The notes under the pieces are model-generated. The model searched no databases. It was not told the origin of the DNA and was given only the letters and a program-made list of their open reading frames with translations. Source: Patescibacteria group bacterium (GTDB lineage: Bacteria; Patescibacteriota; Gracilibacteria; UBA1369; PNNO01). Taken from it: a stretch of DNA of 64,000 nt. Each line of letters begins with the position of its first letter. The stretch's first letter is position 1. Location of the stretch: NCBI GenBank assembly GCA_042568205.1, contig JBHPJE010000004.1, positions 1,280 to 65,279 on the forward strand. The letters are read 5' to 3'. Position numbers and translations under genes: made by a program. This document shows, piece after piece, positions 3,352 to 19,175 of the stretch.

Positions 3352-4242
3352 ATGGGACGGCACATTGGAAAGATACTACAATTTTTTGGATTACTTTTGC
3401 TCTTTGTTATCAACCAGCAAAATATATCTGCTTTCTATCAAGAAGATTTTGAAAATCAGCTTGCTGAGCAGGTACCAGAAACGTATAATAATCACGCTGC
3501 TTCGAATGATGAGCACTACGCAAATCAACTAGATTCCCTTAATTTAAGGCTTTATCCGGGATCTACTTACAAGACAGAAAGTCGAAGCACACTAGGCTCT
3601 TTGAATCATTGCAAGTCTCTCGTGTTCCAGACGTTAACGTCTTTACCAGAAGAACATCGAGAGTATCTTCAGCACCTTACATTATATTTCGCTGAAGGAC
3701 GTCGCGGTTTAGGTGGCGGATCAACTATCATATTAAGATGCTCAAATATTGATGATATGGCACTCAGTTCAGTACTTGTACATGAAATGGGACATGTCGT
3801 TGATACAGGTCTTAAAACAGGTAACAGTTGGACAGGTAAAAGTGAATTTATGGATGGAAGCGTTCCAATCTATAATGACGATCCAAGCTTACGATTCTAT
3901 AGAATTAGTTGGCTGGATGAAAAAACTATTAAACCTGAAGCTGAAAGACAAGACTTTGTTACTGGATATGGTATGACTGATCCTTATGAAGACTTCGCTG
4001 AAAGCTATAATTACTATCTTTTACACGGAAAACAGTTTAAAGAGATGGCTAAATACGATAAAGAGTTAAGACGAAAATACCTATACCTAAAGTACTTTAT
4101 CTTCTCAGGACAAGAGTTTGATAACGATCAAAGTGAATTACCAAACTTTATCATGCGAAGATATGACTCGACAGTACTTGCTTACGATCACGAGAAGTTC
4201 CTGCGCTCAAACAATAATAGGCAGGAAATAGCTACACTCTAA
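3352..4242 (+). CDS. secreted or membrane-anchored zinc metallopeptidase-like protein (HExxH)
   Basis: N-terminal hydrophobic anchor ILQFFGLLLLFVI. Zincin motif VLVHEMGHVVD. Confidence 0.6.
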   Translation: MGRHIGKILQFFGLLLLFVINQQNISAFYQEDFENQLAEQVPETYNNHAASNDEHYANQLDSLNLRLYPGSTYKTESRSTLGSLNHCKSLVFQTLTSLPEEHREYLQHLTLYFAEGRRGLGGGSTIILRCSNIDDMALSSVLVHEMGHVVDTGLKTGNSWTGKSEFMDGSVPIYNDDPSLRFYRISWLDEKTIKPEAERQDFVTGYGMTDPYEDFAESYNYYLLHGKQFKEMAKYDKELRRKYLYLKYFIFSGQEFDNDQSELPNFIMRRYDSTVLAYDHEKFLRSNNNRQEIATL

Positions 4243-4584: not shown

Positions 4585-4662
4585 GGTGAGTGTAGCTCAG
4601 TTGGTTAGAGCACCTGGTTGTGGTCCAGGGGGTCGTGGGTTCGAGCCCCATCACTCACCCCA
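4585..4662 (+). tRNA. trnH: tRNA-His (anticodon GTG) with encoded G-1 and CCA
   Basis: Hand-folded cloverleaf: G-1, acceptor GTGAGTG/CACTCAC, D arm GCTC/GAGC, anticodon stem CCTGG/CCAGG with loop TTGTGGT, T arm GTGGG-TTCGAGC-CCCAT, discriminator C, CCA. Confidence 0.95.
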
Positions 4663-4756
4663 TTTATTTAGAGGCGCTGTTTTGGTTTATTTGAAGACGT
4701 TTACGGCGATTCGAGCGAGGAGTAATGAGTATATAGTGATTATATGATGTTCGAAC
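4663..4756 (+). repeat. 94-nt tRNA-His trailer segment X1 (copy 1 of 2), ending in palindrome GTTCGAAC
   Basis: Aligns without gaps to 10878-10971 with 85 of 94 identical positions (hand alignment). Confidence 0.85.
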
Positions 4757-4758
4757 TT

Positions 4759-4787
4759 TTGACATACCTGGATAAAAGCACTATAAT
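4759..4787 (+). promoter_or_regulatory. consensus sigma70 promoter TTGACA-17 nt-TATAAT
   Basis: TTGACA at 4759-4764 and TATAAT at 4782-4787 with a 17-nt spacer, 24 nt upstream of the ATG at 4812. Begins 3 nt after the end of X1. Confidence 0.6.
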
Positions 4788-4811
4788 TCGTCCTCTTTAT
4801 ACTATTATATT

Positions 4812-5819
4812 ATGCCAATAGAAGGATACAGTAAACACGATGAACCAACTTTACACACCGTTGAGCATAACCGAGAAGTTATGTTAATTGGTGAAGGTGA
4901 TTTAAGATTTGAATTTGCATTTATTGATCTTATAGCTAAATGTCAATTTGATTGTCGAGGTTGTTTTAATCAGGTTTTAAATGATACAGGTGTATCGCTT
5001 AGACAAGAAGAATTAAGAAGTATTGTTGATTTTCTTAAAGAAAGAGGTGGGAGGAATATTACTTTTGCAGGATCAGGTGAACCATTATTGGATCCTGAAT
5101 TATTACCGTTAATTGAATATGCTCACGATAAAGGTATCAATTCGATACTATTTTCCAGCTTAACTACTGTTAATGAAGCAAATGAAGTTGTTCCAGTAAG
5201 TTTAGAAATGGTAGAAGCGTTAAATAAGTTAGATGTACATATAGTTGCGAAAAGAAGTTGTATAGATAATGAAAAACAAGCAGAGATTCTGGGTGTTCCT
5301 AATACAGATGTTGGAGATAAAATGAATTTAGCATTACAAAGTCTTATTGATGCAGGCTTTGCTGAAGATGGAAGATTGTTTATGGATTGCCCAATTGATA
5401 GATATACAATTAATGAAATTCCACAATTACTTAGATTCTGTAGAGAAAGAGGCATACTTCCTTATTTTGAATCATATATTATTCACGGACAGGACAAAGA
5501 AACACAAAAAGAATATAGAATAAGTACCAAAGAGCTTGGTCTTTTATTTCAAGAACTTGCAAGGATCGATCAAGAGGAGTTTGGTATTGATATAGAACTC
5601 GGAAAAGGTATGAGAATTTATCACGCTGATGCTTGTTTAAAACCAGAGTATGGTTTTGCTGTTAAGGCTAATGGAGATGTTAGAAGTTGCCCAACAGATG
5701 CTACTAAAGCGGTTGGAAACATTAAAGAATCGGCTCTTGGAGTCATATTATCACCAAACAATGCTGAATATAGAGCAAAGTTTGGCAAATTTGGTTGTTG
5801 CGCAGTACTTAAAATCTAA
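4812..5819 (+). CDS. radical SAM enzyme with C-terminal SPASM/twitch-like region
   Basis: CX3CX2C motif (CQFDCRGC). Later GSGEPLL glycine-rich SAM-binding-like segment. C-terminal GDVRSCPTD...VGNIKE resembles the SPASM/twitch consensus. Confidence 0.8.
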   Translation: MPIEGYSKHDEPTLHTVEHNREVMLIGEGDLRFEFAFIDLIAKCQFDCRGCFNQVLNDTGVSLRQEELRSIVDFLKERGGRNITFAGSGEPLLDPELLPLIEYAHDKGINSILFSSLTTVNEANEVVPVSLEMVEALNKLDVHIVAKRSCIDNEKQAEILGVPNTDVGDKMNLALQSLIDAGFAEDGRLFMDCPIDRYTINEIPQLLRFCRERGILPYFESYIIHGQDKETQKEYRISTKELGLLFQELARIDQEEFGIDIELGKGMRIYHADACLKPEYGFAVKANGDVRSCPTDATKAVGNIKESALGVILSPNNAEYRAKFGKFGCCAVLKI

Positions 5820-5825
5820 ATAACC

Positions 5826-5862
5826 GTTCGAACAAACACTAAACACTCACCCCATTGAAATT
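5826..5862 (+). repeat. att-like repeat R1: GTTCGAACAAACACTAAACACTCACCCCATTGAAATT
   Basis: Identical (37/37) to 10316-10352. Contains CACTCACCCCA, which is the acceptor 3' strand + discriminator + CCA of tRNA-His. Starts 6 nt after the radical SAM stop codon. Confidence 0.85.
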
Positions 5863-6344
5863 TACCAAACCTTAGATAACGCTTTCCTCGTTGCCCTAGG
5901 CAATCCCCCACAAAAAATTAGGTCTCTTAAGTCATTAGTAGTAATTCTTGTAGGATCTAATCCTAAGAGCTTACAGGCGGCACAGTTATCGAAAAATTGA
6001 CTTGGCTGCTCAAGATCACCTAATGGTGCATCAAACGGGCTCATCCCAAGTTCTTCACACTTTTCGTAGAAATATAAATAATACATGCTAAGGTCGTCAT
6101 ATGGACCAAATCCAAGCGCTGCGCACCTTTTTTCATAATCATCCCAGCTTACCCCACAATCATCAACTTCTGAAGCTCTTTCAGCTTCTTCATAATCTCG
6201 TGGTGCTGTAAAATAGTGGTAACGAAATACTGTAGCGGTCTCTGGATCCCAGCCCCACTCTGCACATTTTTCCTCAAAGCCTTCAGGCCTTCGCATTTGT
6301 ACTGCGGTGCAATCTGGCTCATTTTTACAATTGTTTAAAGTCAT
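5862..6344 (-). CDS. hypothetical acidic protein with four C-x-x-[LW]-G-x-x-P repeats (160 aa)
   Basis: ORF with repeats KCAEWGWDP, RCAALGFGP, KCEELGMSP, ACKLLGLDP. Visibly more GC-rich than neighbours. 11 nt downstream of the 769-aa gene. Confidence 0.6.
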   Translation of the reverse strand: MTLNNCKNEPDCTAVQMRRPEGFEEKCAEWGWDPETATVFRYHYFTAPRDYEEAERASEVDDCGVSWDDYEKRCAALGFGPYDDLSMYYLYFYEKCEELGMSPFDAPLGDLEQPSQFFDNCAACKLLGLDPTRITTNDLRDLIFCGGLPRATRKALSKVW

Positions 6345-6355
6345 TATATATTTGG

Positions 6356-8665
6356 TTAATTTTTATCAGGATCGATTTCGCTATCTATTTCTTCTGGTTT
6401 GTAATCTTCTGGTAATTCACTAAGAATATCATCAAAACGCTGCTCGTTAATTATTATTTCTCTAATAACTGGATCTAAATCCATAATTCGTTCTAGCTCT
6501 TCAGTTTGATCAGCATCAAGATGTCCCTGCTGCAATGCTGTATAATAATAATATGCAACGGCTTTTTTTAAATTGATATCGATTTCCATGGCCCTCTCTA
6601 TCATTTCTTTCTCTTCTTCAGTTACAGTTTCTGAGCCATTGCCTGTATATGTCCAAAAAAGGTCTAACATTCTGGCACTCTCTTCCTCAAAACCATTTTC
6701 TCCATATCCTTCTAACATTTTAGTGTATTCATCGCTTAACATTTCACAGTTATACAGATAGGTTAAAAGTCTTATTCCAAGTATTTCTGCTGCACTAATA
6801 GCTTCATCTGAGGCGTTGAGTAAATCAGGATTTAGCAATAAATGAGATATAAAATCTGGACTATCCCCATGTATCTCTGAAGCTTTTATGAGTTTTTCAT
6901 TGCCAGACTTATTACTTCCGATTACAAAACCTCTAACAATTGGGTCTATTCTACATATACTCATTAATTCATCAATTTGGATTGCACTGAGAAGCCCTTT
7001 TTCCCGAGCTTCAAATAAGTATACACCAACAACCCTTTTAAAATCTGGATCGGCATCCATGGCCTTTTTAATAACGTCCTTCTCTATGTCAGCTAGAGTA
7101 GGATGTTCTGGATGGTTCCCTACATATTTTATCATTTGAGTCTTTAAATCTTCACACTCCATTACAAAAGCAACTTTCTCATCTACATCTATCTCATCCA
7201 ATGCTCTAAGTTTTACTCGGGCACCTAAAGTTTTACAAACTTCCATAAGCGCCATAGGGCTAACGTTGAGAAGTTTTGCCGCTTCTATTGCTTCTGGTGT
7301 AGGATTGAGTTTTTCGTCTTCTTCATTATCAACTGCTGATTTTTTACTACTAAATTCACCTTTTTCAGCTTTTTCTATTAATTCTAATGCATCTATTATT
7401 TCAGCTATTTCGTCACTTACGTCAACATCTAAGCTCTCTTCTAAATTTAAAATATCTTCTAAAGTGATTTCTGTTGTATCAAAATTTTGTAAGACCCATT
7501 CATGTAACGAGAGAGCATAGCACTCCTCAAGTGCAAATTTAAAGTCAGGGTCTACTTCCATGGCCTTTTTTAGCCTCTCCTGCTCTTCCTCAGACAATGG
7601 ATTATTGTTGAAGCCTTTGTACGAAAAAATTCTACTCTGAAATTTTCTTACTTCTCTTACAAACTCACAATCAACAGATTTGTCGATTAGCGTCTCTAAT
7701 TCATCCTGCAATTCTTGCCTTACTGTACCTTTTAAATACATTAGTACAAGAGGATTTACCTTAAGAATTTTTGCTGCTTCCAGGGTTTCTGGCTTTCCAT
7801 TTATAAGGCTAGGTTTTTCCATCAATCTCTGAGCACGGTTATTAACGCTTACATCTTCGAACTCAGCTCTTATTCTATTTCTGATATCTCCTGGCTGTCC
7901 TTTGAAAATTTCATTTAATTTTCTTTTCTGCTCTCGATTTGGATATTTATAACCTAAAAATTGAAAGCACCTTATAGTTATGCTTTGTTTAAATTCATAA
8001 CTAAGTTCCATGGCCCATTCAATTTTCACTACTTCCTCATCAGAAATTTTATCATGCATATGAGTCGTATATGCAATAATTGAAGTTGAAAATTTCTTGT
8101 ACTCCTTTGCAAAATCGCATTCAGAGATGTTTTTTATGTCCAAAAAAAGTTTCCCTGCTAATTCACCTTCAAGCTTTAATAAATAAAGTAAATATGTCAG
8201 AGGACTCACACCTAAAATTTCTGCAACTCTCAATTGTTCAGGTGTAGGTTTTAGTGCTTGGGGATCCTTTAATAATTCCTCTATATAGTCTGGATTGTTT
8301 GTTTTAATTGAAGTTCCCTCATTCATTTTTAATGCAAAAGCTGGATCAATCTCTAATGCTTTTTCTATCCTCTCTCTATCTTTATCTTTTAATATTCCTG
8401 GTGGATAAAAACCTCTATATTCTAATGTTTTTTCTGTAAATTCTTGATAATCTCTTACAAATTGACAATCAGGACTGTTGAAAATTTCATCTTCTAACTT
8501 ATCCCTTAAATCATGTGGTAGTAGATTTTCGAAATACATAAGTGCTAAAGTGCTTACTTTCAGCACATGAGCAGCTGCCACGGTTGGTAAAGGAGCGTTT
8601 AGTTTTGTAGAATCAATTAGTAGCTCCTCGATATAGTCAGGATTTGTTGTATCTTTTACTTCCAT
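6356..8665 (-). CDS. hypothetical protein made of five ~120-150 aa repeats, each with an HTH-like A-A-x-[IL]-L-x-V-x-P-[LM] core (769 aa)
   Basis: Internal repeats: NPDYIEELL..AAHVLKVSTLAL / VAEILGVSPLTY / AAKILKVNPLVL / AAKLLNVSPMAL / AAEILGIRLLTY. Each is followed by a C-[EQD]-F-[VA] segment and a KAME[VI]DP-type segment. Confidence 0.8.
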   Translation of the reverse strand: MEVKDTTNPDYIEELLIDSTKLNAPLPTVAAAHVLKVSTLALMYFENLLPHDLRDKLEDEIFNSPDCQFVRDYQEFTEKTLEYRGFYPPGILKDKDRERIEKALEIDPAFALKMNEGTSIKTNNPDYIEELLKDPQALKPTPEQLRVAEILGVSPLTYLLYLLKLEGELAGKLFLDIKNISECDFAKEYKKFSTSIIAYTTHMHDKISDEEVVKIEWAMELSYEFKQSITIRCFQFLGYKYPNREQKRKLNEIFKGQPGDIRNRIRAEFEDVSVNNRAQRLMEKPSLINGKPETLEAAKILKVNPLVLMYLKGTVRQELQDELETLIDKSVDCEFVREVRKFQSRIFSYKGFNNNPLSEEEQERLKKAMEVDPDFKFALEECYALSLHEWVLQNFDTTEITLEDILNLEESLDVDVSDEIAEIIDALELIEKAEKGEFSSKKSAVDNEEDEKLNPTPEAIEAAKLLNVSPMALMEVCKTLGARVKLRALDEIDVDEKVAFVMECEDLKTQMIKYVGNHPEHPTLADIEKDVIKKAMDADPDFKRVVGVYLFEAREKGLLSAIQIDELMSICRIDPIVRGFVIGSNKSGNEKLIKASEIHGDSPDFISHLLLNPDLLNASDEAISAAEILGIRLLTYLYNCEMLSDEYTKMLEGYGENGFEEESARMLDLFWTYTGNGSETVTEEEKEMIERAMEIDINLKKAVAYYYYTALQQGHLDADQTEELERIMDLDPVIREIIINEQRFDDILSELPEDYKPEEIDSEIDPDKN

Positions 8666-8680
8666 AATTTAAGCAGTTAC

Positions 8681-9295
8681 TTAATTATTATAAGCATCCT
8701 TAGTTCTAATATTATGATGATCTAAATACCAATTAAGATTATCTGTGATTGGTTGTTGTAAAATTATATCTTTTGCTCTTTTTCTCCATTGTGCTATTAA
8801 ATCTTTACTAGCCTCAGGAAATTCAGTCATAGCAGCAGAATAACCTACAGTAAAAGATAAAAGAAAACATCTTAATTGCTTTACTTGTGTTTCTCTAAAA
8901 TCTCCACTTTCAATAAGCCCATTTACAACAACTGTTAACTCCTGTTTAGCAATTTTTCGTTTGGTTTCAGCAACGATTTCGTCGATATCTGCTTTCAATT
9001 TTTCTTTTTCTCTTTCCTCTCTCCTTGCTTGAGCTTCTTTCTTTTTAATCTGATCAATAGCCCAATACTTCCATGTTCGGTATGCATAACCTTTAGGATT
9101 ATCCATTTCTCCACCTGATACTATTAAAATCTTCTTATAGAGCACCTCAAGGGTGTTCATATTATATGTAATTTGAGGATAATTAATTGCTATTTCTTCA
9201 ATCCCTTGCTGAATACAAGTAATGAGTAATTTCTTTCTTAAATCTGAAGATTCATCCTGAGTCTCAGTAGCCAAATTGTGTTTAGCGTTTTCCAT
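8681..9295 (-). CDS. hypothetical protein with remote sigma-70/ECF-like features (204 aa)
   Basis: NPKGYAYRTWKYWAIDQIKKK resembles sigma region 2. C-terminal QVKQLRCFLLSFTVGYSAAMTEFPEASKDLIAQWRKRAKDII resembles the region 4 HTH. Similarity judged by eye only. Confidence 0.3.
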   Translation of the reverse strand: MENAKHNLATETQDESSDLRKKLLITCIQQGIEEIAINYPQITYNMNTLEVLYKKILIVSGGEMDNPKGYAYRTWKYWAIDQIKKKEAQARREEREKEKLKADIDEIVAETKRKIAKQELTVVVNGLIESGDFRETQVKQLRCFLLSFTVGYSAAMTEFPEASKDLIAQWRKRAKDIILQQPITDNLNWYLDHHNIRTKDAYNN

Positions 9296-9437
9296 ATATA
9301 TTAGTTAAGTATAAATCTTCGATGAATTGTTGATTTATTCAAGATACAACTTTAATGCCATTCGACACATATGTCAATGAATATATGTCAAATGCTCAAC
9401 TATGACCACTTTTTATGCTTGAATATACAATTTATTC

Positions 9438-9478
9438 TGTCAACAAATTTTGACAACATGCGCATTTAATGATAGAAT
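9438..9478 (+). promoter_or_regulatory. promoter TTGACA-17 nt-TAGAAT overlapped by inverted repeat TGTCAA-N6-TTGACA
   Basis: TGTCAA at 9438-9443 and TTGACA at 9450-9455 (also the -35), TAGAAT at 9473-9478, ATG at 9507. Two further ATATGTCAA direct repeats at 9369-9377 and 9383-9391. Confidence 0.45.
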
Positions 9479-9506
9479 GTGTTCATATATATAATTTAAA
9501 TTACTA

Positions 9507-10310
9507 ATGATAGAGAATATCCTCAAAAACATTGGCCTAAAACGAAAGGAAATTAAAATTTACCTAGCTTTATTGCCTCTTGGTAGCGCTCCTGCCTCTG
9601 TATTAGGTAAACAAACCAACATTAGTAGAAGCACCGCTCATTACACCTGCAAACAACTTGAACAAAAGGGCCTTGTAAGTTCTACTTTTAAAAAAAATAC
9701 TGATTATTTTAATGCTGAGCCACCTGATAAATTACAATTAATTGTGGATAGAAAAATAAAAAAATTGGAGGTTGATAAAGAAGAACTACATCGGATGTCG
9801 AGTAATTTGATGAGGTTGATTAATCCTCAAGCAGTTTTGCCAAAAATGCGCTTCTACGAAGGTGTTGACGGATTAATATCATTATTTAATGATGAGTTAA
9901 CCTTAAAGGAAGATGAAATTTTATATGGGGCGCATAGATACTTTAGGGATTCCCCAAAAGAATTGGTAGATTACTTTCAAAATACTTATGATAAAAAGAG
10001 AGAAAAACAAAAATACCAGTCATATTCAATTAGGACAAATATACCAGAGGCTATTGAAAGAAGTAAGTTAGACAAGGTAATAAATCGGACATCACTTTTT
10101 ATTCCTGAAAAAGAATTCCCTTTCGAATCCTCTTTTCAAATCTATAAGAATAAAATTGTATTTTATTCTTTACAAAAATCAGATTTAACAGGAGTACTTA
10201 TAGAAAATGATCATATGAAAACAACAATGCTAAGTTTATTTCGCATGGCCTGGAATTATGCAAAAACCCTTAAAATCAACAAAGGTTTCAAGAATATTCC
10301 AACTTTATAA
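9507..10310 (+). CDS. TrmB-family transcriptional regulator
   Basis: N-terminus LKNIGLKRKEIKIYLALLPLGSAPASVLGKQTNISRSTAHYTCKQLEQKGLVS matches the TrmB winged-helix pattern. Length is typical of the family. Confidence 0.7.
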   Translation: MIENILKNIGLKRKEIKIYLALLPLGSAPASVLGKQTNISRSTAHYTCKQLEQKGLVSSTFKKNTDYFNAEPPDKLQLIVDRKIKKLEVDKEELHRMSSNLMRLINPQAVLPKMRFYEGVDGLISLFNDELTLKEDEILYGAHRYFRDSPKELVDYFQNTYDKKREKQKYQSYSIRTNIPEAIERSKLDKVINRTSLFIPEKEFPFESSFQIYKNKIVFYSLQKSDLTGVLIENDHMKTTMLSLFRMAWNYAKTLKINKGFKNIPTL

Positions 10311-10315
10311 TTCCT

Positions 10316-10352
10316 GTTCGAACAAACACTAAACACTCACCCCATTGAAATT
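10316..10352 (+). repeat. att-like repeat R2 (identical to R1)
   Basis: GTTCGAACAAACACTAAACACTCACCCCATTGAAATT, starting 5 nt after the TrmB-like stop codon. Confidence 0.85.
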
Positions 10353-10359
10353 GGCTTGT

Positions 10360-10803
10360 TTAAGCTGTTTTCGGTCTTTTCATTAACACTTTTGGACAAG
10401 TCCCCTCTCTATTATGACCAGTGATTTCAAAACCATGTTTTTTATAGAAAGATATTGCTCTATCGTTATTCTCATAAGTGTCTAAGTGTATTTCTTTACC
10501 TTTCTGAATTAAATCATTAAGAAGTTTTGAACCTATTCCAAGACTTTGATATTCAGGTAGGATATTGAGCAATCCTAGATGAATAATGTTGTTTTTTTCA
10601 GACCAACTAATTAAACCTATCTTTTTATTTTTATAAAAAACTATCTTATCTCTTTCATAATTGATCTTTTTGGGAATCTCTTTTTTTTCTTTTTCTTCAT
10701 CCCAAGGCTTATATTGTTCAATTATAGATTTAATTGTAGCTTTCCTAATTAAAAAATAGAATTCTGATTCATCTTTTTCGACATTTTTTAATTCAATATC
10801 CAT
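10360..10803 (-). CDS. GNAT-family N-acetyltransferase
   Basis: Acetyl-CoA binding-type motif YQSLGIGSKLLNDLIQKGK and C-terminal NDRAISFYKKHGFEITG. Confidence 0.8.
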   Translation of the reverse strand: MDIELKNVEKDESEFYFLIRKATIKSIIEQYKPWDEEKEKKEIPKKINYERDKIVFYKNKKIGLISWSEKNNIIHLGLLNILPEYQSLGIGSKLLNDLIQKGKEIHLDTYENNDRAISFYKKHGFEITGHNREGTCPKVLMKRPKTA

Positions 10804-10848
10804 ATATATTATTAAATGTATACAAATTTATATTAAATCATAAAACCA

Positions 10849-10971
10849 GTTCGAACAAATACTAAACACTCACCCCATTTATTTAGAGGCGCTGTTTTGG
10901 TTTATTTGAAGATGTTTGCGGCGGTTTGACCGAGGAGTGATGAGTATGTAGTGATTATGCGATGTTCGAAC
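10849..10971 (+). repeat. att-like repeat R3 (29 nt) fused to X2, the second copy of the 94-nt tRNA-His trailer
   Basis: GTTCGAACAAATACTAAACACTCACCCCA at 10849-10877 has 1 mismatch to R1. It continues exactly as the sequence after the tRNA does (TTTATTTAGAGGCGCTG...) through GTTCGAAC at 10964-10971. Confidence 0.85.
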
Positions 10972-11104
10972 TTTTTGCCATATCTCATAATTGATGTTAA
11001 ATTCAAATTGTTTGTTGGATAATGAACGTCACAACCAAAAAGTGTAGGCGTTCGTTCAATACAACGCCTGCTCTTTGAAGACTCACGCAGAAAGAGAAAA
11101 AAAT

Positions 11105-11395
11105 ATGCCTGCTAAACCGAACACACCTCCACCTAAGATTCAAGTTAACACTGGGCAGAATACATTAAAAACTAACTGCTTGGCTGGTGCTTGGGGTAGA
11201 AATGATGGTGAAGACTCCATCGAAGGTTGCAAAGGTGATGCTAGCCATGAAGCAGTTTACGATGAGCTGTGGTCATTGAGATGCTGTAGCAATCCTGCCT
11301 GCCAGGAGTGGGCCAAAGGATATGTCGTCCGCGAAAGGAACAGAAACACCGTTCCAACTCTTCGTGGCGCACTGCAAGGCAAAATCGAGCTTTGA
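11105..11395 (+). CDS. small Cys-rich hypothetical protein (96 aa) in a GC-rich patch
   Basis: ATG at 11105 preferred over the TTG at 11075. Six Cys (..NCLAGAW..EGCKGD..LRCCSNPACQEW..). Local G+C visibly higher than surrounding DNA. 6-bp hairpin ACGATG..CATCGT follows the stop. Confidence 0.5.
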   Translation: MPAKPNTPPPKIQVNTGQNTLKTNCLAGAWGRNDGEDSIEGCKGDASHEAVYDELWSLRCCSNPACQEWAKGYVVRERNRNTVPTLRGALQGKIEL

Positions 11396-11484
11396 GCAGG
11401 AGTCAACTTACGATGAAGCGTGAGCATCGTGAGTTTGACCTAAATCAGTTTATTTGTCATATTCCCAAACCTTAATTTAGTTTC

Positions 11485-11825
11485 ATGAAAGGTGTAAAAA
11501 TTTCGAATGCTTACAATGCGGTATTTGTTGTTATACTCCACGCATTGATTTTGGTAACGGTGTAGTGAAGCCTCCAATGACTCCATGTAATTTTCTTGAA
11601 GTAGAAGAAATTAAAGATAGAGCATTAAGTGCTGCAAATTGTACTATACATGATAAAAAGCGACCTGATATTTGTGAAGATTTCACAAACAGTCAGTTTG
11701 GAGGACCATGTACAAGAGGACTTTTCTTTTGGAAAGAACATGTAGATAGAAATTTAGTTGATCTTGATAAAATTCCAGAAAAAGTACGTTTAATACTAGA
11801 AGGCATTTATAGTAGGACATCTTAA
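11485..11825 (+). pseudogene. YkgJ/UPF0153-type CxxCxxCC Fe-S/zinc protein, interrupted by a frameshift in an A5 run
   Basis: ATG at 11485 reads MKGVK, then goes out of frame at the A-run 11496-11500. The frame of track ORF 11565..11825 is open back to 11481 and encodes ..CKNFECLQCGICCYTPR.., i.e. the family signature lies upstream of any in-frame start. One extra A would give an intact ORF. Confidence 0.6.
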
Positions 11826-11829
11826 AACT

Positions 11830-11866
11830 GTTCGAACAACGTGTAAACACTCACCCCATTGAAATT
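11830..11866 (+). repeat. att-like repeat R4 (33/37 identical to R1)
   Basis: GTTCGAACAACGTGTAAACACTCACCCCATTGAAATT, starting 4 nt after the stop at 11825. Confidence 0.8.
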
Positions 11867-11940
11867 CGCTTTTTTGAGCTGTAGTTGTACATTAAATTCA
11901 AAATGGTATAATTTTATAATGTTAATTAACAATTATCCAC

Positions 11941-12231
11941 ATGGAAACAAAAGTTGTAAAATTTGAAATCGGAAAAATCTTAGCAATAATCATTGTAGTA
12001 ATTGCAATTGCAGTGCTAGCAAGTTTTGTTGTTAAAAGTACGTTTTTCGGAGGTAACATTAAAACTGCACCTATTGAGCCTTTAATTGAAAAGATTGAGT
12101 TTGATCCAACAAAGCATGAGCTTGATAAAACCTTTATAATTGATGAAAGCATTAATGTGCCAATCAATTCTGGTGATGAATTATTAGATCAAGATGCTGA
12201 CTTTAAGCCAGAATTTGAATCGCCAAAGTAA
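11941..12231 (+). CDS. small single-pass membrane protein (96 aa)
   Basis: TM segment ILAIIIVVIAIAVLASFVV followed by an acidic tail. Preferred over antisense ORF 11922..12167. Confidence 0.5.
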   Translation: METKVVKFEIGKILAIIIVVIAIAVLASFVVKSTFFGGNIKTAPIEPLIEKIEFDPTKHELDKTFIIDESINVPINSGDELLDQDADFKPEFESPK

Positions 12232-12250
12232 GCTACGATGGCGCTCTTTT

Positions 12251-12817
12251 TTATTCTCCTTTTAATATTTTTCTAAGTGCTTTATATGCTTCTTTATATT
12301 GCTTAGCGAAAGCTTCGCCATCCTCTTTAGTAACGTGTGTGATATTTGGTATTTGATATTGTGGCTCAAAAGAACATGCGTCCCGAATCTCTTTTGGAAG
12401 TAATTTTGCAAATGTATTTAGTCTTTCACTGCCATAGCCACTACTTAATCCTGTTTCTGGGTCAACATACAAAATAGTTAGACATTCTCCTTGTTTTATT
12501 TCTTCAGGAGTGTACATAGTCCCATCATTCTCGCATGGAAACGCCCCTAGAAGTAATTTACAACCTTTAGGGTATTTTTCTCTTAAATTTCTAAAATTTT
12601 GTTTAAAATAATCTAATTTTGCTTCGAGTAATTCGTCAGACATAAAATCATCACCATATACCTCAAACACTTCTTGTAAATCCTCTAATGGTATTGATTC
12701 TGCTTGATCAACAGATATTGGGACTCCTGCATTATTGTATTCGACGAGGCGTTGCGACTCATTCAATATTGTCATTGCAACTATTGCATCACTTTGATTA
12801 AATTCTAATTTATTCAT
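12251..12817 (-). CDS. acidic hypothetical protein (188 aa), downstream partner of the giant kinase-domain gene
   Basis: ORF starting 24 nt downstream of the stop of the 1962-aa gene on the same strand. No motif recognised. Confidence 0.65.
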   Translation of the reverse strand: MNKLEFNQSDAIVAMTILNESQRLVEYNNAGVPISVDQAESIPLEDLQEVFEVYGDDFMSDELLEAKLDYFKQNFRNLREKYPKGCKLLLGAFPCENDGTMYTPEEIKQGECLTILYVDPETGLSSGYGSERLNTFAKLLPKEIRDACSFEPQYQIPNITHVTKEDGEAFAKQYKEAYKALRKILKGE

Positions 12818-12841
12818 ATGTTTTTATGTTATTTATATTAA

Positions 12842-15800
12842 TTAAAGTTGATCAACTACATTTTGTAAAGATATATAATCCGGATCTCTGCTGCCGTCAG
12901 GTTTAAATTCTGTAGGATGGTTTCTGACATCTCTTAGTTTATTAGCTAGATCATACAATTTTTTCGCACTTGCAGGCGCATCTTCATTCAAAGTATAACT
13001 ATGATCCCAATCATCATCGGGTTTTGTCTTTGTAACATGTCCTCTTGCTTTTAGTCTTTCTAAAATAGTAGATCCTACTCCATATTTATCTCCGGCATCA
13101 ACCGGCAATTTACCGCTAACAGAATCTGAAATTAATTGCGGATTATGATAAAGGGCAGTAAATCCCACATTATACATTTGACCATCCTTTCCTTTAAAGA
13201 ATGGAATTTCAACTAAATTCCCTTGGATTTCAACTTGAAATACTGTAAGCCCACCAGCTTTATCCAATTTCCCAAAATTAGATTGCCTTGTCATACTACC
13301 TATATCGATAAGCTCGCCTGTATTAACCAACTTCCCTTCAGCGTTTTTTATTTTACCAATAACAACATTTGCGGGTTTTAAATCATTATGCGCCATCCCT
13401 TTTACGTGTAAAGAAATAGCTCCCTTGCACATTCCTTTTAAAACTTGTGAAAATTCCTTATCACTCAATGTTCCTAATTTTGACTCTAATTCATGCGATT
13501 CTCCTTTAATATCAGACACCTTTTCGTAAAGAATAAATCCTTTTGTTCTAAAAACAGGTTTTGCTATATGTGCATCACCAGGATGAGGACCATGTTCTTG
13601 ACTAGCTTGTGAATAATCTCCAACATTAAAGTGTTCATAATCAAATTGGGGTTTTGCTTCAGTATTACCCGGAATTAATATCTTATATGCCCCTTCTTTT
13701 AATTTATTAGACGGTTTAATTACATACCATGTTTCAAAAGCTACACCTATTCCACCCTCTTCACCCAATTGCTTTCCTTTATACATTCTTATTGTTCGAC
13801 CGTTTTCGTCTGTATGCTCTGTTGCTCCTTTTAGCATTGCTCTTATCATTTTCTCGTTTGCAATTTCTGGATTTGCCTTAAGAATCGCTTTATCATCTGG
13901 TGTTAATTCATGTCTCTTTTTCCCAGTTTCTATTAATTTATTTATTTGATCAGGACTCATCCCCTCAAACAATTTTGCTAAATTTTCCTTCATCATTGAA
14001 TCAAGTTTCGGTCTGATTCTTTTACCATGAGGATTAAACTCAGTACCAACATAAGCAATTAACAATTGTTTAAAATCTTTACCATCTTTTGATGTTCCAT
14101 TTATCAAATCAGCTAAATCAACAGCATTTTCTGAATTGAACTCAACACCATTTGCTTTTAATTGTGTAAGAGCTCTAACAAAGGCCTTACCTTTCATTAA
14201 CCGTACATCTAATGATGGGAATTCAGAATTATCGGATAAGTTTCCAAATCTTCCTGCATGTTTTTCCAAACCAAAATCGCGTAATTTTCCAACAACATCA
14301 CTAACTTCATCAGCTACTTGTTGTAAACGATCAAGTTCAGCAACTCTTTCCTGCAAAGTTGTAAATCTTGATTTATCACTATAATTAGTAACTTGCTTAA
14401 CTTCAGCTCCTAAACTTCTTATTCTTAAACTATCAGCTTTAAATTGAATTTCTCCATGTAGTTGAATAAGCTCTTTGACTATTTTTTGCCTTTGTTTTAA
14501 TGACTTCATTTGCCGCCCGGTACTTGTCATGAAAGATAGTTCCTTATTTGATATTTCTTTTGCTAAATCGTGCAAACTAATTTTTTCTAATTCTACTCTT
14601 AGCTTATCTAATTCAATTTGTACCATTTTGTCAGGTGCCTCTGCTCTCTTTGGTTCATATTTAATACCTTTAATACTTGCGGCTTTTGGTTGTGCTTTAG
14701 GAAATAAATCTACATTTCCACCTGATGCTGGCTCTCCTTGAACAAGTGTTCCTGCGGCTCTTGCTTCAGGCGAACCTATAGCTGGAGGTTTAGATGAAGA
14801 AGGAGGAGAGGGTTGTGCAGTTGAACCAGCCCATTCAATATTTGTCTTTCCTCTGATTTGATTCACAGATTTAAATTCAGGGATAGGGCCACAACCCATA
14901 GCTCCAAGTTTTTGAGTTGGTATAATTTTTATATCTAGTAAAAGTTTTGGTATTTTTTTCGCGTATTTAGTCAAACCATACTTTTTGTTAAATTTAGACA
15001 TAGAACCACCACAATCTTGCACCAATAGCGCAAAGGCTTCTCTTATGGTTTTGTTTTTGAAGTATTTAACAATCCTTACTTTATTCTTTACGAAGAATCT
15101 TTCGGCTTTCCTTCTATCGGCTATTTGCTGTTCTGACATAATTGCTGTTCCTTTTGGAAGTTTTACTTTAATTTCAACTCCTCCTTTTCTAATACTTACT
15201 GTCCCATCTTGATTCTGTATTGCTAAAAATCCTCGTTCTCTTAACTCTAGAATTGTTTCCTGATAATCTTCTTTATTTTTGAATGTATATTCGCCTTTTT
15301 TATTCTTAGTAAGATTTGGGATTCTTGTAATTTCTGCCTGAGGTGTTAAATTCTCGCTTTGTTTAGCAGGTTTAACTTCAAAAGCAGAGATTTCCTTATC
15401 TATAACTTTGCCATCCTTCCCTCTAACTTTTGTTTTAAGATAAATAAATACATTTTTATTTTTATCAATTTTATAACTAAAGTGTTGATCAGGCTTACTT
15501 CCAAATTTTGCAGCTAAATTTTGTACAAACTGTTTAGGATTTGCAGTTGTATAAACGAAATTATTTCCTTCGGTTGCAAATCCTACATCTGTAGCACCAA
15601 TTCCGTGTAAAGCTAATTGTGTATGTGGACTTTTAGAACAACCTATTGCCGAAACTATCCATCCTACATACGGATTTGTTCTTTCAGCACCTTCTTCGAA
15701 ACCCTCCTGACCTAATTCTCTACTAAAATCTCTAAAAGTACTATTTTTACCCTGAATATAATTTTCAGGATCTAAAAATTTACCAATACTTTGAATTTTT

Positions 15801-18730
15801 TTAAGTCCAAACTTTCCAAAGCCTTTATAAAATCTATTTGGTGATTTTGCCAACCTAGTGAGACCAGACATGGCTCCTCTAGCTGCATAAACTGCACTCA
15901 TACTCATTGCAAAACCAATAGCAAAATCTTTAGCTAAACCTTTTGCTTCCCAAATTTTCTTAAATCCACCATAATCAATAGCTCCGGTAGCTTGAAATGC
16001 TGACATTGCAAGTCTTGATCCAACAGCTCCTCCTGCTGATGCTCCAGCCATACTAGTTGAAGTAACTAAGAATTGCTGTACCCCTGCACTCGCTACACGA
16101 GCAAATAACCTTTGGCCAAGTGCTGCAAAAGCAGATCCACCTACCATTGCAGTAGCAACAGCTGTAGTTAAAATTGCTACATTTGCAATACTAGTTGCAA
16201 ATTCAGTCATAACTTTTTTATCAAGTGCGTTTTTAAGCTCTAATCTTTGAAGTGAGAGCTTAGTATCAAATCCTGAACCATAAATCGCTTTTTCATCATT
16301 ATGCATCTTCATAATTTTATCTCGAGCGACTTTAATATTTTTCTTTATTTGATCTCTTAATTGTGGACTATTTTTGTATTTTTGATTCGCCGCAAGAGAT
16401 GTTTTCCCTAATTCTACCCATTTAGCAAATAAGAAATCGTTTGCTTTTTCACTATGATTCGCTGCTTCTCCATATAATTTAATTGCTTTTTCATATCCAA
16501 AAGTAAAAGGCGTTGTAGGATTCTTCATAACAATTGCAATTGCATTAACCTTCCTTACTGCTTCATTAACATGCCCATCTTTACTAAATAGCTTAGTTTC
16601 AATTTCATCGAAGGGTTTTGAAAGTTCAGCTTTAACGAACGGTTGAATCAATTCAGAACTAGCTAAATTTTCATATTTAGATAAATTCTGTGTGACATTT
16701 AAGAAAATATTTAAAGCCTTGAGCTTTTCACCGTAAATATCAGCTCCTTTTCCTACAGTATCAGCAGTCTCACCCAAACTTTCATCAAAACGTTTAATTC
16801 CATGTGTATGTACTACTTCTCCAACACCTTTTCCTGTTCTGTACGTCCTAACATTATTACCATTCTTTTTAAGTATCTCCTTGAATGTTTTTCCCTTAGG
16901 CTCATTAAGCATTGCTGCCATTTTAAAATCCTGACAAATTTTTAAATATTTTGAATCTAATTTCCTTAGTAAATGCAACATTGAACCATATCCGATCAAC
17001 CTTGCTTTAACTTGTTCTTGTTTCTCAACAGGTTTAATATCAAATATTGTTTTATTCTCAGGCGGAGATTTACTAACAGTTTTGAAAAAATCTTCATGTT
17101 CTTGCATAGTCATACTAATTTGGGACATAGCATTCCGAGTATTCACAGCTTTCCGCTGTATAAGTTCCAAGTTTGTTTTCTTATCCCATGAAGGTGTTGT
17201 TTCAAGTTTCCCTGTTTTATAAAAATCATTATGAAATTCACGATAGAGGTCCCCATGTTCTCCTTCAAAGAGTCCAGAGGGATTATCTAAACTAATTAAT
17301 TCTTTTTCAGCAAGTATTGCTTGGTAACTACTAAACAAAGGAGACATTGGAATTTTGTGCTCTTTTGAAAACTTCTTTAATCCATTTAAATTTTCGGTAT
17401 CATTAAATTTACGTTGGCCAAAATATCCCAACATAGCACTAATATTTGCTTTTGTATCTTCTGATTTAAGATTAGTTGATGGTTTAGCTATGTACTTTTT
17501 CGTCATATCTTTAGCCATGTCCAAAAAAATCCTTAATGAATCCAGAGATTTTAACTTTAGTTTCTGTTGAACAATACTTTTTTGATGTTTAAGAATTTTA
17601 TCATCAACCTCATCTTTAGCATCATATTCTCGATATATTTGAAGTTGTTCAATTTCTTTTTTTAACTTTGAAGCACGTTGATTTCTATCCTTCTCAAGAT
17701 TAGTTTTATTTCTTATGTATTCTTTTTCTATATACATTGATTTTTTTGTATATTCAGCTGAACCACCCTTCATTAATGAGTGGTCAAAGATAAATCGAAG
17801 TAATTGCTTTGGTGGCATTTCTTTTGCCATTATCGCAAATTCTTTAGGGTTGAGTTTTTTCAAATATGCAACTTTTGCAAGAATAAATTGAGTTACTTTT
17901 GACTTAGGTATCCCAATGGATTCATACGCTGCCATTAGTCTATTAACTTGATGTAGCTCTAATCTAATCCCCTGACCTTCAACAGAATTTCGAATTTTCA
18001 AAAATTTTTCCTGAAACTTTTGTTGTTTTTTGAATTCTTTGAATATTTTCTCACCTGCTGAAATATTCCCATTACAGTAATGGCCAAGCATACTAAATAC
18101 TTGTGCTCTCTCACCTTTAGAAAAGAGTTTAGTTTGTACCCTAAAATCACTCGAAATAATATCTGCATCTAATTTGTTTTGTATTGTTTTATGTTGAAAA
18201 AATATTTTTATAGTCTCTTTCATTCGACTTTTAATCGTTTTAAGAGGGACTCTTTTTGAACTAGGCGTTCGTACATAAGCTTCAGCATATTGAGCAAACA
18301 TTTTTTTACCAATATTGCTATTTAAGAAATCATAATTAGTAATTGATTCTCTTATTGCATTAAAATCAAGTCGCGCTTTATGTGTTTCTATTTTTTTTCT
18401 TAAAGTTACTGTTCTAACTTTCAATTTGCTTTCAAACACGGCCATCTTTAAATTACCAGATGCCAATTTCCTAATTGCAGCAACCATATCTTTCAAATAT
18501 GCTTGCTTTTGTGCATCAACTATCTTGCCATGCTTATCAAGACCTTTTGTTTCATTCCATGCTCCTTTTGCAGCATCAGCCCATTTAGAAACTTCTTTAT
18601 GATGTTTTGCTAAATACTTAATTGTTCTTCCACGAAACTTAGTCCATTCTGCCTTAGTTTTAACTCCTTCAGGCTTTTTTTCTGGATCTATAAAAAGTTT
18701 TACTGCTCCTGCTACATCGTCAAATGGCAT
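12842..18730 (-). CDS. giant multidomain protein (1962 aa) with C-terminal Hanks-type protein kinase-like domain
   Basis: Last ~318 aa (nt ~12845-13798) contain a G-loop-like LGEEGGIGVAF, AYKIL (Lys), the catalytic loop HNDLKPAN (nt 13367-13390) and LIDIGS in place of DFG. A central Gly/Ala-rich hydrophobic block lies at nt ~15880-16200. The N-terminal ~1000 aa are Lys-rich. Confidence 0.85.
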   Translation of the reverse strand: MPFDDVAGAVKLFIDPEKKPEGVKTKAEWTKFRGRTIKYLAKHHKEVSKWADAAKGAWNETKGLDKHGKIVDAQKQAYLKDMVAAIRKLASGNLKMAVFESKLKVRTVTLRKKIETHKARLDFNAIRESITNYDFLNSNIGKKMFAQYAEAYVRTPSSKRVPLKTIKSRMKETIKIFFQHKTIQNKLDADIISSDFRVQTKLFSKGERAQVFSMLGHYCNGNISAGEKIFKEFKKQQKFQEKFLKIRNSVEGQGIRLELHQVNRLMAAYESIGIPKSKVTQFILAKVAYLKKLNPKEFAIMAKEMPPKQLLRFIFDHSLMKGGSAEYTKKSMYIEKEYIRNKTNLEKDRNQRASKLKKEIEQLQIYREYDAKDEVDDKILKHQKSIVQQKLKLKSLDSLRIFLDMAKDMTKKYIAKPSTNLKSEDTKANISAMLGYFGQRKFNDTENLNGLKKFSKEHKIPMSPLFSSYQAILAEKELISLDNPSGLFEGEHGDLYREFHNDFYKTGKLETTPSWDKKTNLELIQRKAVNTRNAMSQISMTMQEHEDFFKTVSKSPPENKTIFDIKPVEKQEQVKARLIGYGSMLHLLRKLDSKYLKICQDFKMAAMLNEPKGKTFKEILKKNGNNVRTYRTGKGVGEVVHTHGIKRFDESLGETADTVGKGADIYGEKLKALNIFLNVTQNLSKYENLASSELIQPFVKAELSKPFDEIETKLFSKDGHVNEAVRKVNAIAIVMKNPTTPFTFGYEKAIKLYGEAANHSEKANDFLFAKWVELGKTSLAANQKYKNSPQLRDQIKKNIKVARDKIMKMHNDEKAIYGSGFDTKLSLQRLELKNALDKKVMTEFATSIANVAILTTAVATAMVGGSAFAALGQRLFARVASAGVQQFLVTSTSMAGASAGGAVGSRLAMSAFQATGAIDYGGFKKIWEAKGLAKDFAIGFAMSMSAVYAARGAMSGLTRLAKSPNRFYKGFGKFGLKKIQSIGKFLDPENYIQGKNSTFRDFSRELGQEGFEEGAERTNPYVGWIVSAIGCSKSPHTQLALHGIGATDVGFATEGNNFVYTTANPKQFVQNLAAKFGSKPDQHFSYKIDKNKNVFIYLKTKVRGKDGKVIDKEISAFEVKPAKQSENLTPQAEITRIPNLTKNKKGEYTFKNKEDYQETILELRERGFLAIQNQDGTVSIRKGGVEIKVKLPKGTAIMSEQQIADRRKAERFFVKNKVRIVKYFKNKTIREAFALLVQDCGGSMSKFNKKYGLTKYAKKIPKLLLDIKIIPTQKLGAMGCGPIPEFKSVNQIRGKTNIEWAGSTAQPSPPSSSKPPAIGSPEARAAGTLVQGEPASGGNVDLFPKAQPKAASIKGIKYEPKRAEAPDKMVQIELDKLRVELEKISLHDLAKEISNKELSFMTSTGRQMKSLKQRQKIVKELIQLHGEIQFKADSLRIRSLGAEVKQVTNYSDKSRFTTLQERVAELDRLQQVADEVSDVVGKLRDFGLEKHAGRFGNLSDNSEFPSLDVRLMKGKAFVRALTQLKANGVEFNSENAVDLADLINGTSKDGKDFKQLLIAYVGTEFNPHGKRIRPKLDSMMKENLAKLFEGMSPDQINKLIETGKKRHELTPDDKAILKANPEIANEKMIRAMLKGATEHTDENGRTIRMYKGKQLGEEGGIGVAFETWYVIKPSNKLKEGAYKILIPGNTEAKPQFDYEHFNVGDYSQASQEHGPHPGDAHIAKPVFRTKGFILYEKVSDIKGESHELESKLGTLSDKEFSQVLKGMCKGAISLHVKGMAHNDLKPANVVIGKIKNAEGKLVNTGELIDIGSMTRQSNFGKLDKAGGLTVFQVEIQGNLVEIPFFKGKDGQMYNVGFTALYHNPQLISDSVSGKLPVDAGDKYGVGSTILERLKARGHVTKTKPDDDWDHSYTLNEDAPASAKKLYDLANKLRDVRNHPTEFKPDGSRDPDYISLQNVVDQL

Positions 18731-18732
18731 TT

Positions 18733-18987
18733 TTATTTTTTAAATTTATTAATATATTTTTTTGTAATTTTATCAACTTCTTCATGTAAATCATCCTCTA
18801 AATCATCCTCAAATATAAGTGTTAATGCTGTATCTAAGTCTTTTTTTTGATTATTTTTAAAATAGGTGTAAATCTTTTTCATTTCTTCCTGGTTTAGATC
18901 ATCTAAAAGCTCAATCCATTTAGATTTTTCAGATTCATCAATAAAATCAACACTATTGATCAAATTTTTTAATTTTTGTTTTAACAA
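18733..18987 (-). CDS. small acidic hypothetical protein (84 aa), upstream partner of the giant gene
   Basis: TTG-initiated track ORF whose stop lies 2 nt before the ATG of the 1962-aa gene. Start codon is uncertain. Confidence 0.45.
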   Translation of the reverse strand: MLKQKLKNLINSVDFIDESEKSKWIELLDDLNQEEMKKIYTYFKNNQKKDLDTALTLIFEDDLEDDLHEEVDKITKKYINKFKK

Positions 18988-19175
18988 AGTTTATTTTGGT
19001 TACATTTTATCTAAATATTATAACAAAAATTACACAAATTTACAATGCTCAAACAGGCATTTATTGTTTATTTAAAAACACTTTTAGAGACTTGACCTAA
19101 TTTTGTAACGGCTAACATCGCATTTCGTTTTAATAGGTGTTAGAATAAGTCGAATATTTAATTAACCTTTTATAT

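Follow-up and report, generated by a model that had tools for sequence, protein, structure and literature searches.

An acquired-looking cassette at the tRNA-His locus of a Gracilibacteria genome encodes a TrmB-family regulator and a five-unit array of a previously undescribed all-alpha domain

Anatomy of the cassette and its setting

Cassette B is a 4.45-kb group of genes within a 64,000-nt stretch of DNA (the window, to which all unmarked coordinates refer) from contig JBHPJE010000004.1 (positions 1,280 to 65,279) of assembly GCA_042568205.1, a Patescibacteria group bacterium of the Gracilibacteria; the host assembly, which belongs to the candidate phyla radiation (CPR), comprises 1.16 Mb in 42 contigs, is 88% complete, and provided the 3,108 open reading frames (ORFs) used for ranking. 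Three minus-strand genes lie opposite one plus-strand TrmB-type gene. The first gene of the operon (8681..9295, minus strand) encodes a 204-aa soluble orphan with a pI of 7.7 that is predicted to be helical, with a Lys/Glu-rich central helix; it is followed by the gene for a soluble, acidic protein of 769 aa composed of five diverged domain copies (6356..8665, minus strand), and then by the gene for a soluble, acidic 160-aa orphan (5862..6344, minus strand; pI 4.4) that is rich in Cys (nine residues) and aromatic residues. No transmembrane or signal-like segments were found in any of the three minus-strand proteins (maximum KD19 1.46). The gaps of 15 nt (769-aa/204-aa) and 11 nt (160-aa/769-aa) were taken from the ORF list and the junctions were read directly, and the ORF positions are exactly those given in an earlier description made from the DNA alone (the sequence-only reading), which had reported three tightly spaced minus-strand genes opposite a TrmB regulator. 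A divergent control region of 211 bp (9296..9506) separates the 204-aa gene from that of the 267-aa TrmB-family regulator (9507..10310, plus strand), one of six paralogs in the genome, whose winged helix-turn-helix (wHTH) domain occupies residues 6–71.

The cassette is bounded by two copies of a 37-nt direct repeat, R (GTTCGAACAAACACTAAACACTCACCCCATTGAAATT), both on the plus strand and identical at 37/37 positions; the left copy (5826..5862) shares one base with the stop codon of the 160-aa gene, and the right copy (10316..10352) starts 6 nt after the TrmB stop codon. Each contains CACTCACCCCA, the last 11 nt of the tRNA-His(GTG) gene at 4586..4662 (plus strand), and this tRNA 3′ end is copied in every R. 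The repeat occurs four times in the genome, always at the tRNA-His locus and always on the plus strand, and three related genomes were each found to carry one R-like copy. After the third R copy, the tRNA-His 3′ end and trailer appear again as a 109-nt copy with 92% identity (10849-10975 versus 4652-4760).

In a genome of the same genus (G001), the corresponding locus (G001:C19) holds tRNA-His, one unrelated gene for a 456-aa secreted protein, and a single R. The window genes at 3352-4242 and from 19176 onward have G001 counterparts at 50–75% aa identity, and no counterparts were found in G001 for the interval from 4663 to about 19,100, which defines a variable island of ~14.5 kb (4586-19100) beginning at and anchored by the tRNA-His gene. 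Because the flanks are conserved in G001 and the interior is absent, cassette B is cargo of this island; together with the perfect direct repeats carrying the tRNA-His 3′ end, this supports the earlier view of a repeat-bounded mobile unit, in so far as the cassette looks horizontally acquired. Since the third-codon-position G+C content of the cassette genes falls within the range of the genome (0.21–0.32 versus 0.24 ± 0.10) and TrmB-like proteins are characteristic of the order (see below), a related lineage probably acted as donor.

The five-unit protein and its domain

Internal repetition in the 769-aa protein is well above chance, with 25-residue diagonals scoring up to 64 in a BLOSUM62 self-comparison versus a maximum of 42 in 20 shuffles. 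The five units, encoded on the minus strand at 8312-8665 (unit 1, residues 1–118), 7841-8311 (unit 2, residues 119–275), 7331-7840 (unit 3, residues 276–445), 6872-7330 (unit 4, residues 446–598), and 6359-6871 (unit 5, residues 599–769), are about 115–170 aa long and align colinearly at 23–34% identity. A unit starts with an N-P-D-Y-I-E-E-L-L-like segment, continues with a P-E-x-x-x-A-A-x-x-L-[GKN]-V-S-P-x-x-L hairpin and an acidic helix, and after the latter has a C-[EQD]-F-[VA] segment, after which come Y-x-G, a loop, and L-S-E-E-E-x-E-R-I-K-K-A-M-E-x-D-P-D-F-K; an extra helical tail ends units 2–5. Five repeats, each with the AAxxL[GKN]VSP core and a KAMEVDPDFK-like segment, were thus present as the sequence-only reading had described them, except that the Cys of the C-[EQD]-F-[VA] segment occurs in three of the five (units 1–3), the position reading VAFV in unit 4 and NGFE in unit 5. 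A profile built from the units recovers all five as separate domains (E 1e-49 to 1e-67). The duplication is old, since at the DNA level the copies are only 66–71% alike over 56 nt. The whole protein is strongly acidic (pI 4.56, net charge about −67, K+R 12%), and in D+E content (20.7%) it ranks among the top 3.4% of the proteins of this genome.

When 1.84 billion representative sequences were searched exhaustively by HMMER with the repeat profile, one match besides the query came back, a 161-aa protein (P0004) with a score of 35.5 bits (E 8e-4 over the entire library) versus a proteome background of ≤7.6 bits. P0004 aligns over its full length to one unit, including the hairpin (VAEMFGMG) and a C-terminal D-P-I-L-R-E-I helix, and because it is a free-standing single unit, the unit is taken to be an autonomous domain that occurs singly or five-fold. 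The UvrA protein of the P0004 genome is 75.7% identical to that of the host genome, and given this close relationship the domain family appears to be lineage-restricted; the metagenome-assembled genome concerned (GCA_042576625.1, contig JBHPEV010000024.1) is labeled "Pseudomonadota bacterium" at NCBI, which the UvrA identity suggests is probably a mislabeling. The P0004 gene lies between uvrA and an HTH_17 (excisionase-like) gene, and no equivalents of the 204-aa or 160-aa proteins were found in its neighborhood.

Other searches of the three minus-strand proteins were negative. A word-indexed homolog search of 5.8 billion clusters returned the query only for each of them, and neither Pfam nor NCBIfam gave a match above cut-off; PADLOC gave nothing for the three orphans and generic wHTH matches for the TrmB protein only, and PHROGs gave, besides generic wHTH matches for TrmB, a single 23-bit summed match of the repeat core to phrog_11636 (unknown function). 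A tblastn search with the 769-aa protein found no match in phage and plasmid collections, and the repeat profile found no paralog in the same genome and no credible homolog in 60 relatives, matches of 12 and 11 bits being judged noise. The earlier remark that no characterized family has this architecture is therefore upheld. Orphan operons are common in CPR genomes.

An AlphaFold2 model of unit 3 has nine predicted helices, with a mean predicted local distance difference test (pLDDT) score of 78.8 (about 90 over residues 1–115) and a predicted template modeling score (pTM) of 0.63, and it places a helix-turn-helix-like hairpin at helices H17-26 and H30-37. Foldseek searches with this model found nothing significant in PDB (best E 0.67, template modeling score ≤ 0.27) or BFVD (best E 1.4). 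Searched against PDB sequences, the family profile gave no matches other than the three-helix bundle of staphylococcal protein A and of affibodies (E 0.027–0.37). The likeness to protein A lies in the second half of units 2–5 (window 6359-7900) and in P0004 residues 88–140, and it improves once P0004 joins the profile; it probably reflects convergent helix-capping patterns in a small helical bundle. The 769-aa protein's unit is an all-alpha domain not described before, found singly or in a five-fold array.

The AAxxLGVSP core had previously been likened to the recognition-helix region of Fis/excisionase-type helix-turn-helix (HTH) domains, and the 769-aa protein to a poly-HTH DNA binder. That proposal is not supported, in view of the pI, the hydrophobic second helices, and the lack of any match to an HTH family or fold; the predicted unit is a helical domain for which Foldseek found no HTH neighbor in PDB or BFVD. 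The second helices of the hairpin read PLTYLLYL, PLVLMYLK, PMALMEVC, TLALMYFE, and LLTYLYNC in the five units. Among HTH families the best matches to the hairpin were RWP-RK (E 0.18) and HTH_43 (E 0.09), none above noise, and an HTH_8 match (E 0.0014) covers profile positions 1–15 only, that is, the helix before the HTH, and falls on the EKDVIKKAMDADPDF segment (E-K-D-V-I-K-K-A-M-D-A-D-P-D-F), ~65 residues from the hairpin. Purely hydrophobic second helices in a strongly acidic protein make DNA binding unlikely, and the hairpin probably has a structural part in the core of the domain.

The TrmB-type regulator and the control region

The assignment of the 267-aa protein as a TrmB-type regulator was confirmed by a match to Pfam TrmB (PF01978) above the gathering score (40.2 bits versus a cut-off of 25.6; E 3e-10; residues 6–71). 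Beyond residue 71 no Pfam match was obtained, and NCBIfam TrmBL1 matched weakly (E 0.0018) over residues 4–162. TrmB-like proteins were found in 100 of 101 genomes of the order, at 1–16 copies per ~1-Mb genome (six here); full-length relatives are 28–40% identical, the best match to the cassette copy reaching 40%, and members are typically 28–35% identical to one another. No literature on TrmB in CPR bacteria was found.

The control region contains a promoter-like site on each strand, TTGACA-17-TAAAGT at 9377-9349 (minus strand) and TTGACA-17-TAGAAT with a TG element at 9450-9478 (plus strand). TGTCAA half-sites, read directly from the sequence, occur as a direct pair (ATATGTCAA; 9369-9377 and 9383-9391), and an inverted TGTCAA-N6-TTGACA arrangement at 9438-9455 overlaps the −35 box of the TrmB gene. 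These half-sites would fit a dimeric winged-helix repressor gating both promoters.

The 204-aa protein and the question of a sigma factor

Segments resembling sigma-70 region 2 and a region 4 HTH had been noted in the 204-aa protein, but its scores are at noise in Pfam, NCBIfam, decoy, lineage-specific hidden Markov model (HMM), and hhalign comparisons, and a sigma reading has no statistical support from its sequence. The top three NCBIfam matches are all models of extracytoplasmic function (ECF) sigma factors (E 0.005–0.008; 15.8–17 bits versus cut-offs of 42.9–211), TIGR02937 giving 15.8 bits and E 0.008 (cut-off 42.9), and Pfam gave no match to Sigma70_r2 or r4 at E ≤ 1. Ten NCBIfam decoys (reversed and locally shuffled versions of the protein) matched no sigma family, which leaves a slight chance of a very remote relationship; five of them matched unrelated families at E 0.003–0.05, and because these decoys score equally, an E of ~0.005 is noise for a composition this rich in Lys and Glu. 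The four true ECFs of the genome score 84–109 bits on TIGR02937, with the 204-aa protein not listed even at E ≤ 10, and in a search with an HMM made from 17 ECFs taken from related genomes, those four come up at E ≤ 1e-31 and the 204-aa protein ranks 231st among the 3,108 ORFs (E 41). Aligned with 20 ECFs by hhalign, the protein scores 18.4 (P 0.054, Prob 1%, 22 columns), versus 17.7 for its reversed sequence, 9.8–16.1 for shuffles, and 154 (99.6%) for a left-out true ECF. Its single-sequence AlphaFold2 model is all helical and, with pLDDT 49.5 and pTM 0.23, too poor for fold comparison.

An anti-sigma-like lead from the single-unit relative

P0004 matches the Pfam anti-sigma domain zf-HC2 at E 0.0014 (19.1 bits; cut-off 22.2) on the segment I-M-Q-Y-L-E-G-E-L-S-E-S-D-R-E-R-I-E-S-A-L-V, which is the counterpart of the most conserved part of the units. 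Ten composition-matched P0004 decoys gave no Pfam match at E ≤ 0.1, and because its decoys are clean, this match stands above compositional noise, unlike the sigma match of the 204-aa protein. In the units, the residues aligned to the Hx3Cx2C zinc ligands read A-M-x-x-D-P-x-F (A-M-E-V-D-P-D-F). In the published survey of class I anti-sigma domains (ASDIs), ~44% lack the zinc motif (present in ~56%), ~35% are soluble, and ECFs are genomically associated with their ASDIs (PMC7406223).

Further comparisons did not strengthen the match. None of the five units matched zf-HC2 at E ≤ 10, the family profile, run against PDB sequences, matched no anti-sigma chain at E ≤ 10, and the top 50 Foldseek matches of the unit in PDB included no anti-sigma factor; hhalign of the family with five genuine zf-HC2 segments from the phylum aligned 15 columns in the expected register (P 0.2). 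No sigma gene lies within 7.6 kb upstream or 8 kb downstream of P0004. Residues 89–116 of the 769-aa protein gave a weak match to the NCBIfam "anti-sigmaE" model (E 0.15). Likeness in sequence makes descent of the unit from an anti-sigma-like domain a weak, testable lead, which three additional tests left unconfirmed; it is also the one weak lead for the sigma binding that the sequence-only reading had offered as an option for the 769-aa protein.

The zf-HC2 domain itself was found in 0 of 101 genomes of the order and in 6 of 301 in the phylum, and ECF sigma genes number 3–6 per genome in this family of genomes. Each of the four ECF genes of the host (contigs C1, C3, and C38) has a gene for a single-pass membrane protein with no recognized anti-sigma domain directly downstream. 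Elsewhere in the CPR, a 119-aa protein (L075; G116:C1:92339-92443 region, ORF 1480-1839) has a tandem pair of zf-HC2 (Hx3Cx2C) motifs within a single chain.

The Cys-repeat protein and its radical SAM neighbor

The 160-aa protein contains four instances of the motif C-x-x-[LW]-G-x-x-P, whose Cys are residues 27, 74, 96, and 124, and none of 200,000 shuffles contained three or more such motifs. Outside the motif the repeated segments are weakly alike, the best diagonal scoring 32 versus a 95th percentile of 30 in shuffles. The four motifs were as reported in the sequence-only reading; the relation it drew between them and the core of the 769-aa protein was not borne out by reciprocal HMM searches. 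The candidate explanation that the motif is a short form of the AAxxLGVSP hairpin was rejected, as the reciprocal HMMs miss each other at E ≤ 100 among the 3,108 ORFs. Residues 66–103 show a local likeness to saccharopine dehydrogenase 4rl6 (YEKRCxxLGF...EKxxExG; E 0.15) that is probably due to chance.

A gene for a SPASM-type radical SAM enzyme (4812-5819) and the 160-aa gene are convergent, their ends lying 43 nt apart. The notion that cassette B had split an older radical SAM/GNAT/6-Cys module, suggested by contig G001:C9, was discarded because the GNAT and Cys proteins on that contig proved not to be genuine counterparts. The radical SAM relative on G001:C9 sits between two copies of a 111-aa gene (2129-2464 and 5028-5363) with identical N-terminal sequence, and an ORF resembling an integrase N-terminal domain lies a few kb away; this may be another small mobile region.

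Interpretation

We give an even chance to the reading of cassette B as a horizontally acquired, TrmB-controlled operon that encodes a soluble, multivalent protein-binding scaffold made of the new all-alpha domain. The cassette would be a 4.45-kb piece of acquired cargo in the ~14.5-kb tRNA-His island of a CPR genome. The TrmB-like protein would bind the TGTCAA half-sites over both −35 boxes of the 211-bp region and so gate the operon and its own gene. The 769-aa protein would serve as a multivalent protein-binding scaffold, not as a DNA binder, and its five units might capture a partner or sequester it, the co-transcribed 204-aa and 160-aa proteins (one or both) being the most plausible candidates. 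This scheme is built on observations of the anatomy of the cassette, its repeated units, and its absence from the congener, of the orphan status of its proteins and their soluble, acidic, helical character, and of the perfect direct repeats at its flanks.

Several points weigh against it. We infer that TrmB controls the operon, that the 769-aa protein binds proteins, and which proteins its partners are. The six closest relatives of the TrmB protein sit among housekeeping genes, with no similar operon adjoining any of them. The domain family has two known members, which share no conserved gene neighborhood from which a function could be deduced, and the fold model of the unit was built on a five-sequence alignment of internal repeats. 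No recombinase was found in the cassette or the island by Pfam and NCBIfam searches of the cassette proteins and a PF00589 search of the genome; the assembly, 88% complete, has a single detectable PF00589 tyrosine recombinase gene, located on contig C20 (C20:1647-2126) and unlinked to the island.

Among the alternatives, a mobile sigma/anti-sigma module, with the 204-aa protein as a very divergent ECF and the 769-aa protein as a soluble anti-sigma factor of five tandem, zinc-less ASDI-like units, is rather unlikely. The order of a sigma gene followed after 15 nt by that of its anti-sigma would be the canonical layout; the zf-HC2 match of P0004 falls exactly on the Y-x-G...LSEEE-ERI-KAME-DPDF core, its decoys are clean, and hhalign sets the repeat core in the expected zf-HC2 register, although zf-HC2 matches none of the five units and the hhalign P is 0.2 over 15 columns. 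Many ASDIs are likewise zinc-less (~44%) or soluble (~35%) (PMC7406223), yet neither the PDB profile search (E ≤ 10) nor Foldseek returned an anti-sigma factor. The three best NCBIfam matches of the 204-aa protein are ECF models and residues 89–116 of the 769-aa protein weakly recall "anti-sigmaE" (E 0.15), but the 204-aa protein is at noise in every test and lacks Pfam Sigma70_r2/r4, P0004 has no sigma gene nearby, and the four real ECFs of the genome already have membrane partners of their own. A more elaborate version is unlikely: it describes a self-contained mobile switch in which a cryptic, extremely divergent ECF-like 204-aa protein would be held by a soluble, pentavalent, zinc-less anti-sigma factor, with the Cys-repeat protein as sensor or co-factor and TrmB as repressor, and which would pass between CPR genomes by way of the tRNA-His site with no recombinase of its own.

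That the cargo acts on other cells or elements, as an acidic DNA-mimic or anti-restriction-type protein or as a host-interaction factor of an episymbiotic lineage, is quite unlikely; its location in a variable island and the strongly acidic, helical repeat architecture would suit such a role, but the proteins have no secretion signal, no PADLOC or PHROGs annotation, and no match in the phage and plasmid collections, and classical DNA mimics are more acidic than the 20.7% D+E seen here. It is very unlikely that the 160-aa protein, perhaps with the Cys of units 1–3, is a substrate of the radical SAM/SPASM enzyme, to be cross-linked or otherwise modified in a maturation of the QhpC type or of that of ribosomally synthesized and post-translationally modified peptides (RiPPs). 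The enzyme gene is just 43 nt away and the four regular Cys motifs stand beside acidic and aromatic residues; against this, the genes are convergent and separated by the bounding R repeat, no Cys-repeat protein is encoded near the enzyme's relatives in G001, G410, and G088, and a 160-aa size without a leader/core layout is atypical of RiPP precursors. The proposal of a poly-HTH DNA-binding scaffold with five Fis/excisionase-like motifs is highly improbable. The AAxxLGVSPxxL core is spaced like an HTH, the model shows an HTH-like hairpin there, and sub-threshold matches to RWP-RK (E 0.18) and HTH_43 (E 0.09) cover it; however, the charge of about −67 at pI 4.56 argues otherwise, as do second helices that are hydrophobic throughout and offer no Arg, Lys, Gln, Ser, or Thr at reading positions, HTH family scores at noise, an HTH_8 match that lies outside the HTH on another segment, and a Foldseek search in which no HTH protein has a template modeling score above 0.27.

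If the reading as an acquired, TrmB-controlled scaffold operon is true, cassette B would cleanly illustrate how lineage-specific modules for regulation or protein interaction reach tiny CPR genomes, as compact cassettes with a regulator of their own at a tRNA hotspot. The new autonomous all-alpha domain, whose confidently predicted structure has no neighbor in PDB or BFVD, would have modest practical value as a domain family to deposit. Only confirmation of the anti-sigma-like lead would make the cassette more interesting, as a multivalent soluble anti-sigma factor on a mobile cassette; to our knowledge, none has been described.

Comparison with known systems

Compared to anti-sigma factors of class I (ASDI; zf-HC2, PF13490; RsrA, ChrR, RslA, and RsiW), the 769-aa protein is similar in being soluble with a short helical unit, in a motif order of C...Y-x-G-(x)-L-S-x-E-E-x-E-R-I-x-x-A-[LM] that is in register with C...YLDGELSxEExxxVExHL, in the 19.1-bit zf-HC2 score of P0004, and in the position of its gene directly downstream of that of a ~200-aa protein. 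It is unlike them in that A-M-x-x-D-P-x-F replaces Hx3Cx2C in the units, an absence compatible with a non-zinc ASDI, in that no significant profile, PDB-sequence, or fold match was found and the upstream 204-aa protein is not demonstrably a sigma factor, and in that the units are ~150 aa long with extra N- and C-terminal helices and number five per chain; we know of no characterized anti-sigma factor with five ~150-aa units in one chain. The 204-aa protein is like ECF (group 4) sigma-70 factors (TIGR02937; Sigma70_r2/Sigma70_r4_2) in its length and first position in the operon, and by eye in colinear F/Y-x-x-W-x-Y (residues 70–77) and R-x-F-L-L...G-Y-S...R-A-K (residues 141–178) segments, whereas its scores are indistinguishable from those of reversed and shuffled controls and the helix equivalent to region 2.4 is ~5 residues short and without the conserved polar residues. 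The D-P-x-F-K...[FY]-[YF]...L...Q-x-x-E-L-x-x-I-x-x-x-D-P pattern of the units spans the whole 58-aa bundle of the staphylococcal protein A B/Z domain, from which the family differs in its marginal score, its taxonomy and context, and its lack of Pfam support.

The regulator resembles the sugar-responsive TrmB regulators (PF01978) in its N-terminal wHTH, which passes the cut-off, in its divergent orientation to the operon that it presumably controls, and in the palindromic half-sites over its own promoter; it differs in a C-terminal part that matches no curated TrmB sensor domain, and in belonging to a lineage-specific expansion with no sugar-metabolism context. Set beside tRNA-targeted integrative elements and islets, cassette B is small (only 4.45 kb), has no integrase or excisionase in the cassette or island, and bears repeats in which only about 13 of the 37 nt of R match the tRNA itself, but it shares with them direct repeats carrying the tRNA 3′ end at both flanks, several units in tandem downstream of one tRNA gene, and a content that varies between congeners.

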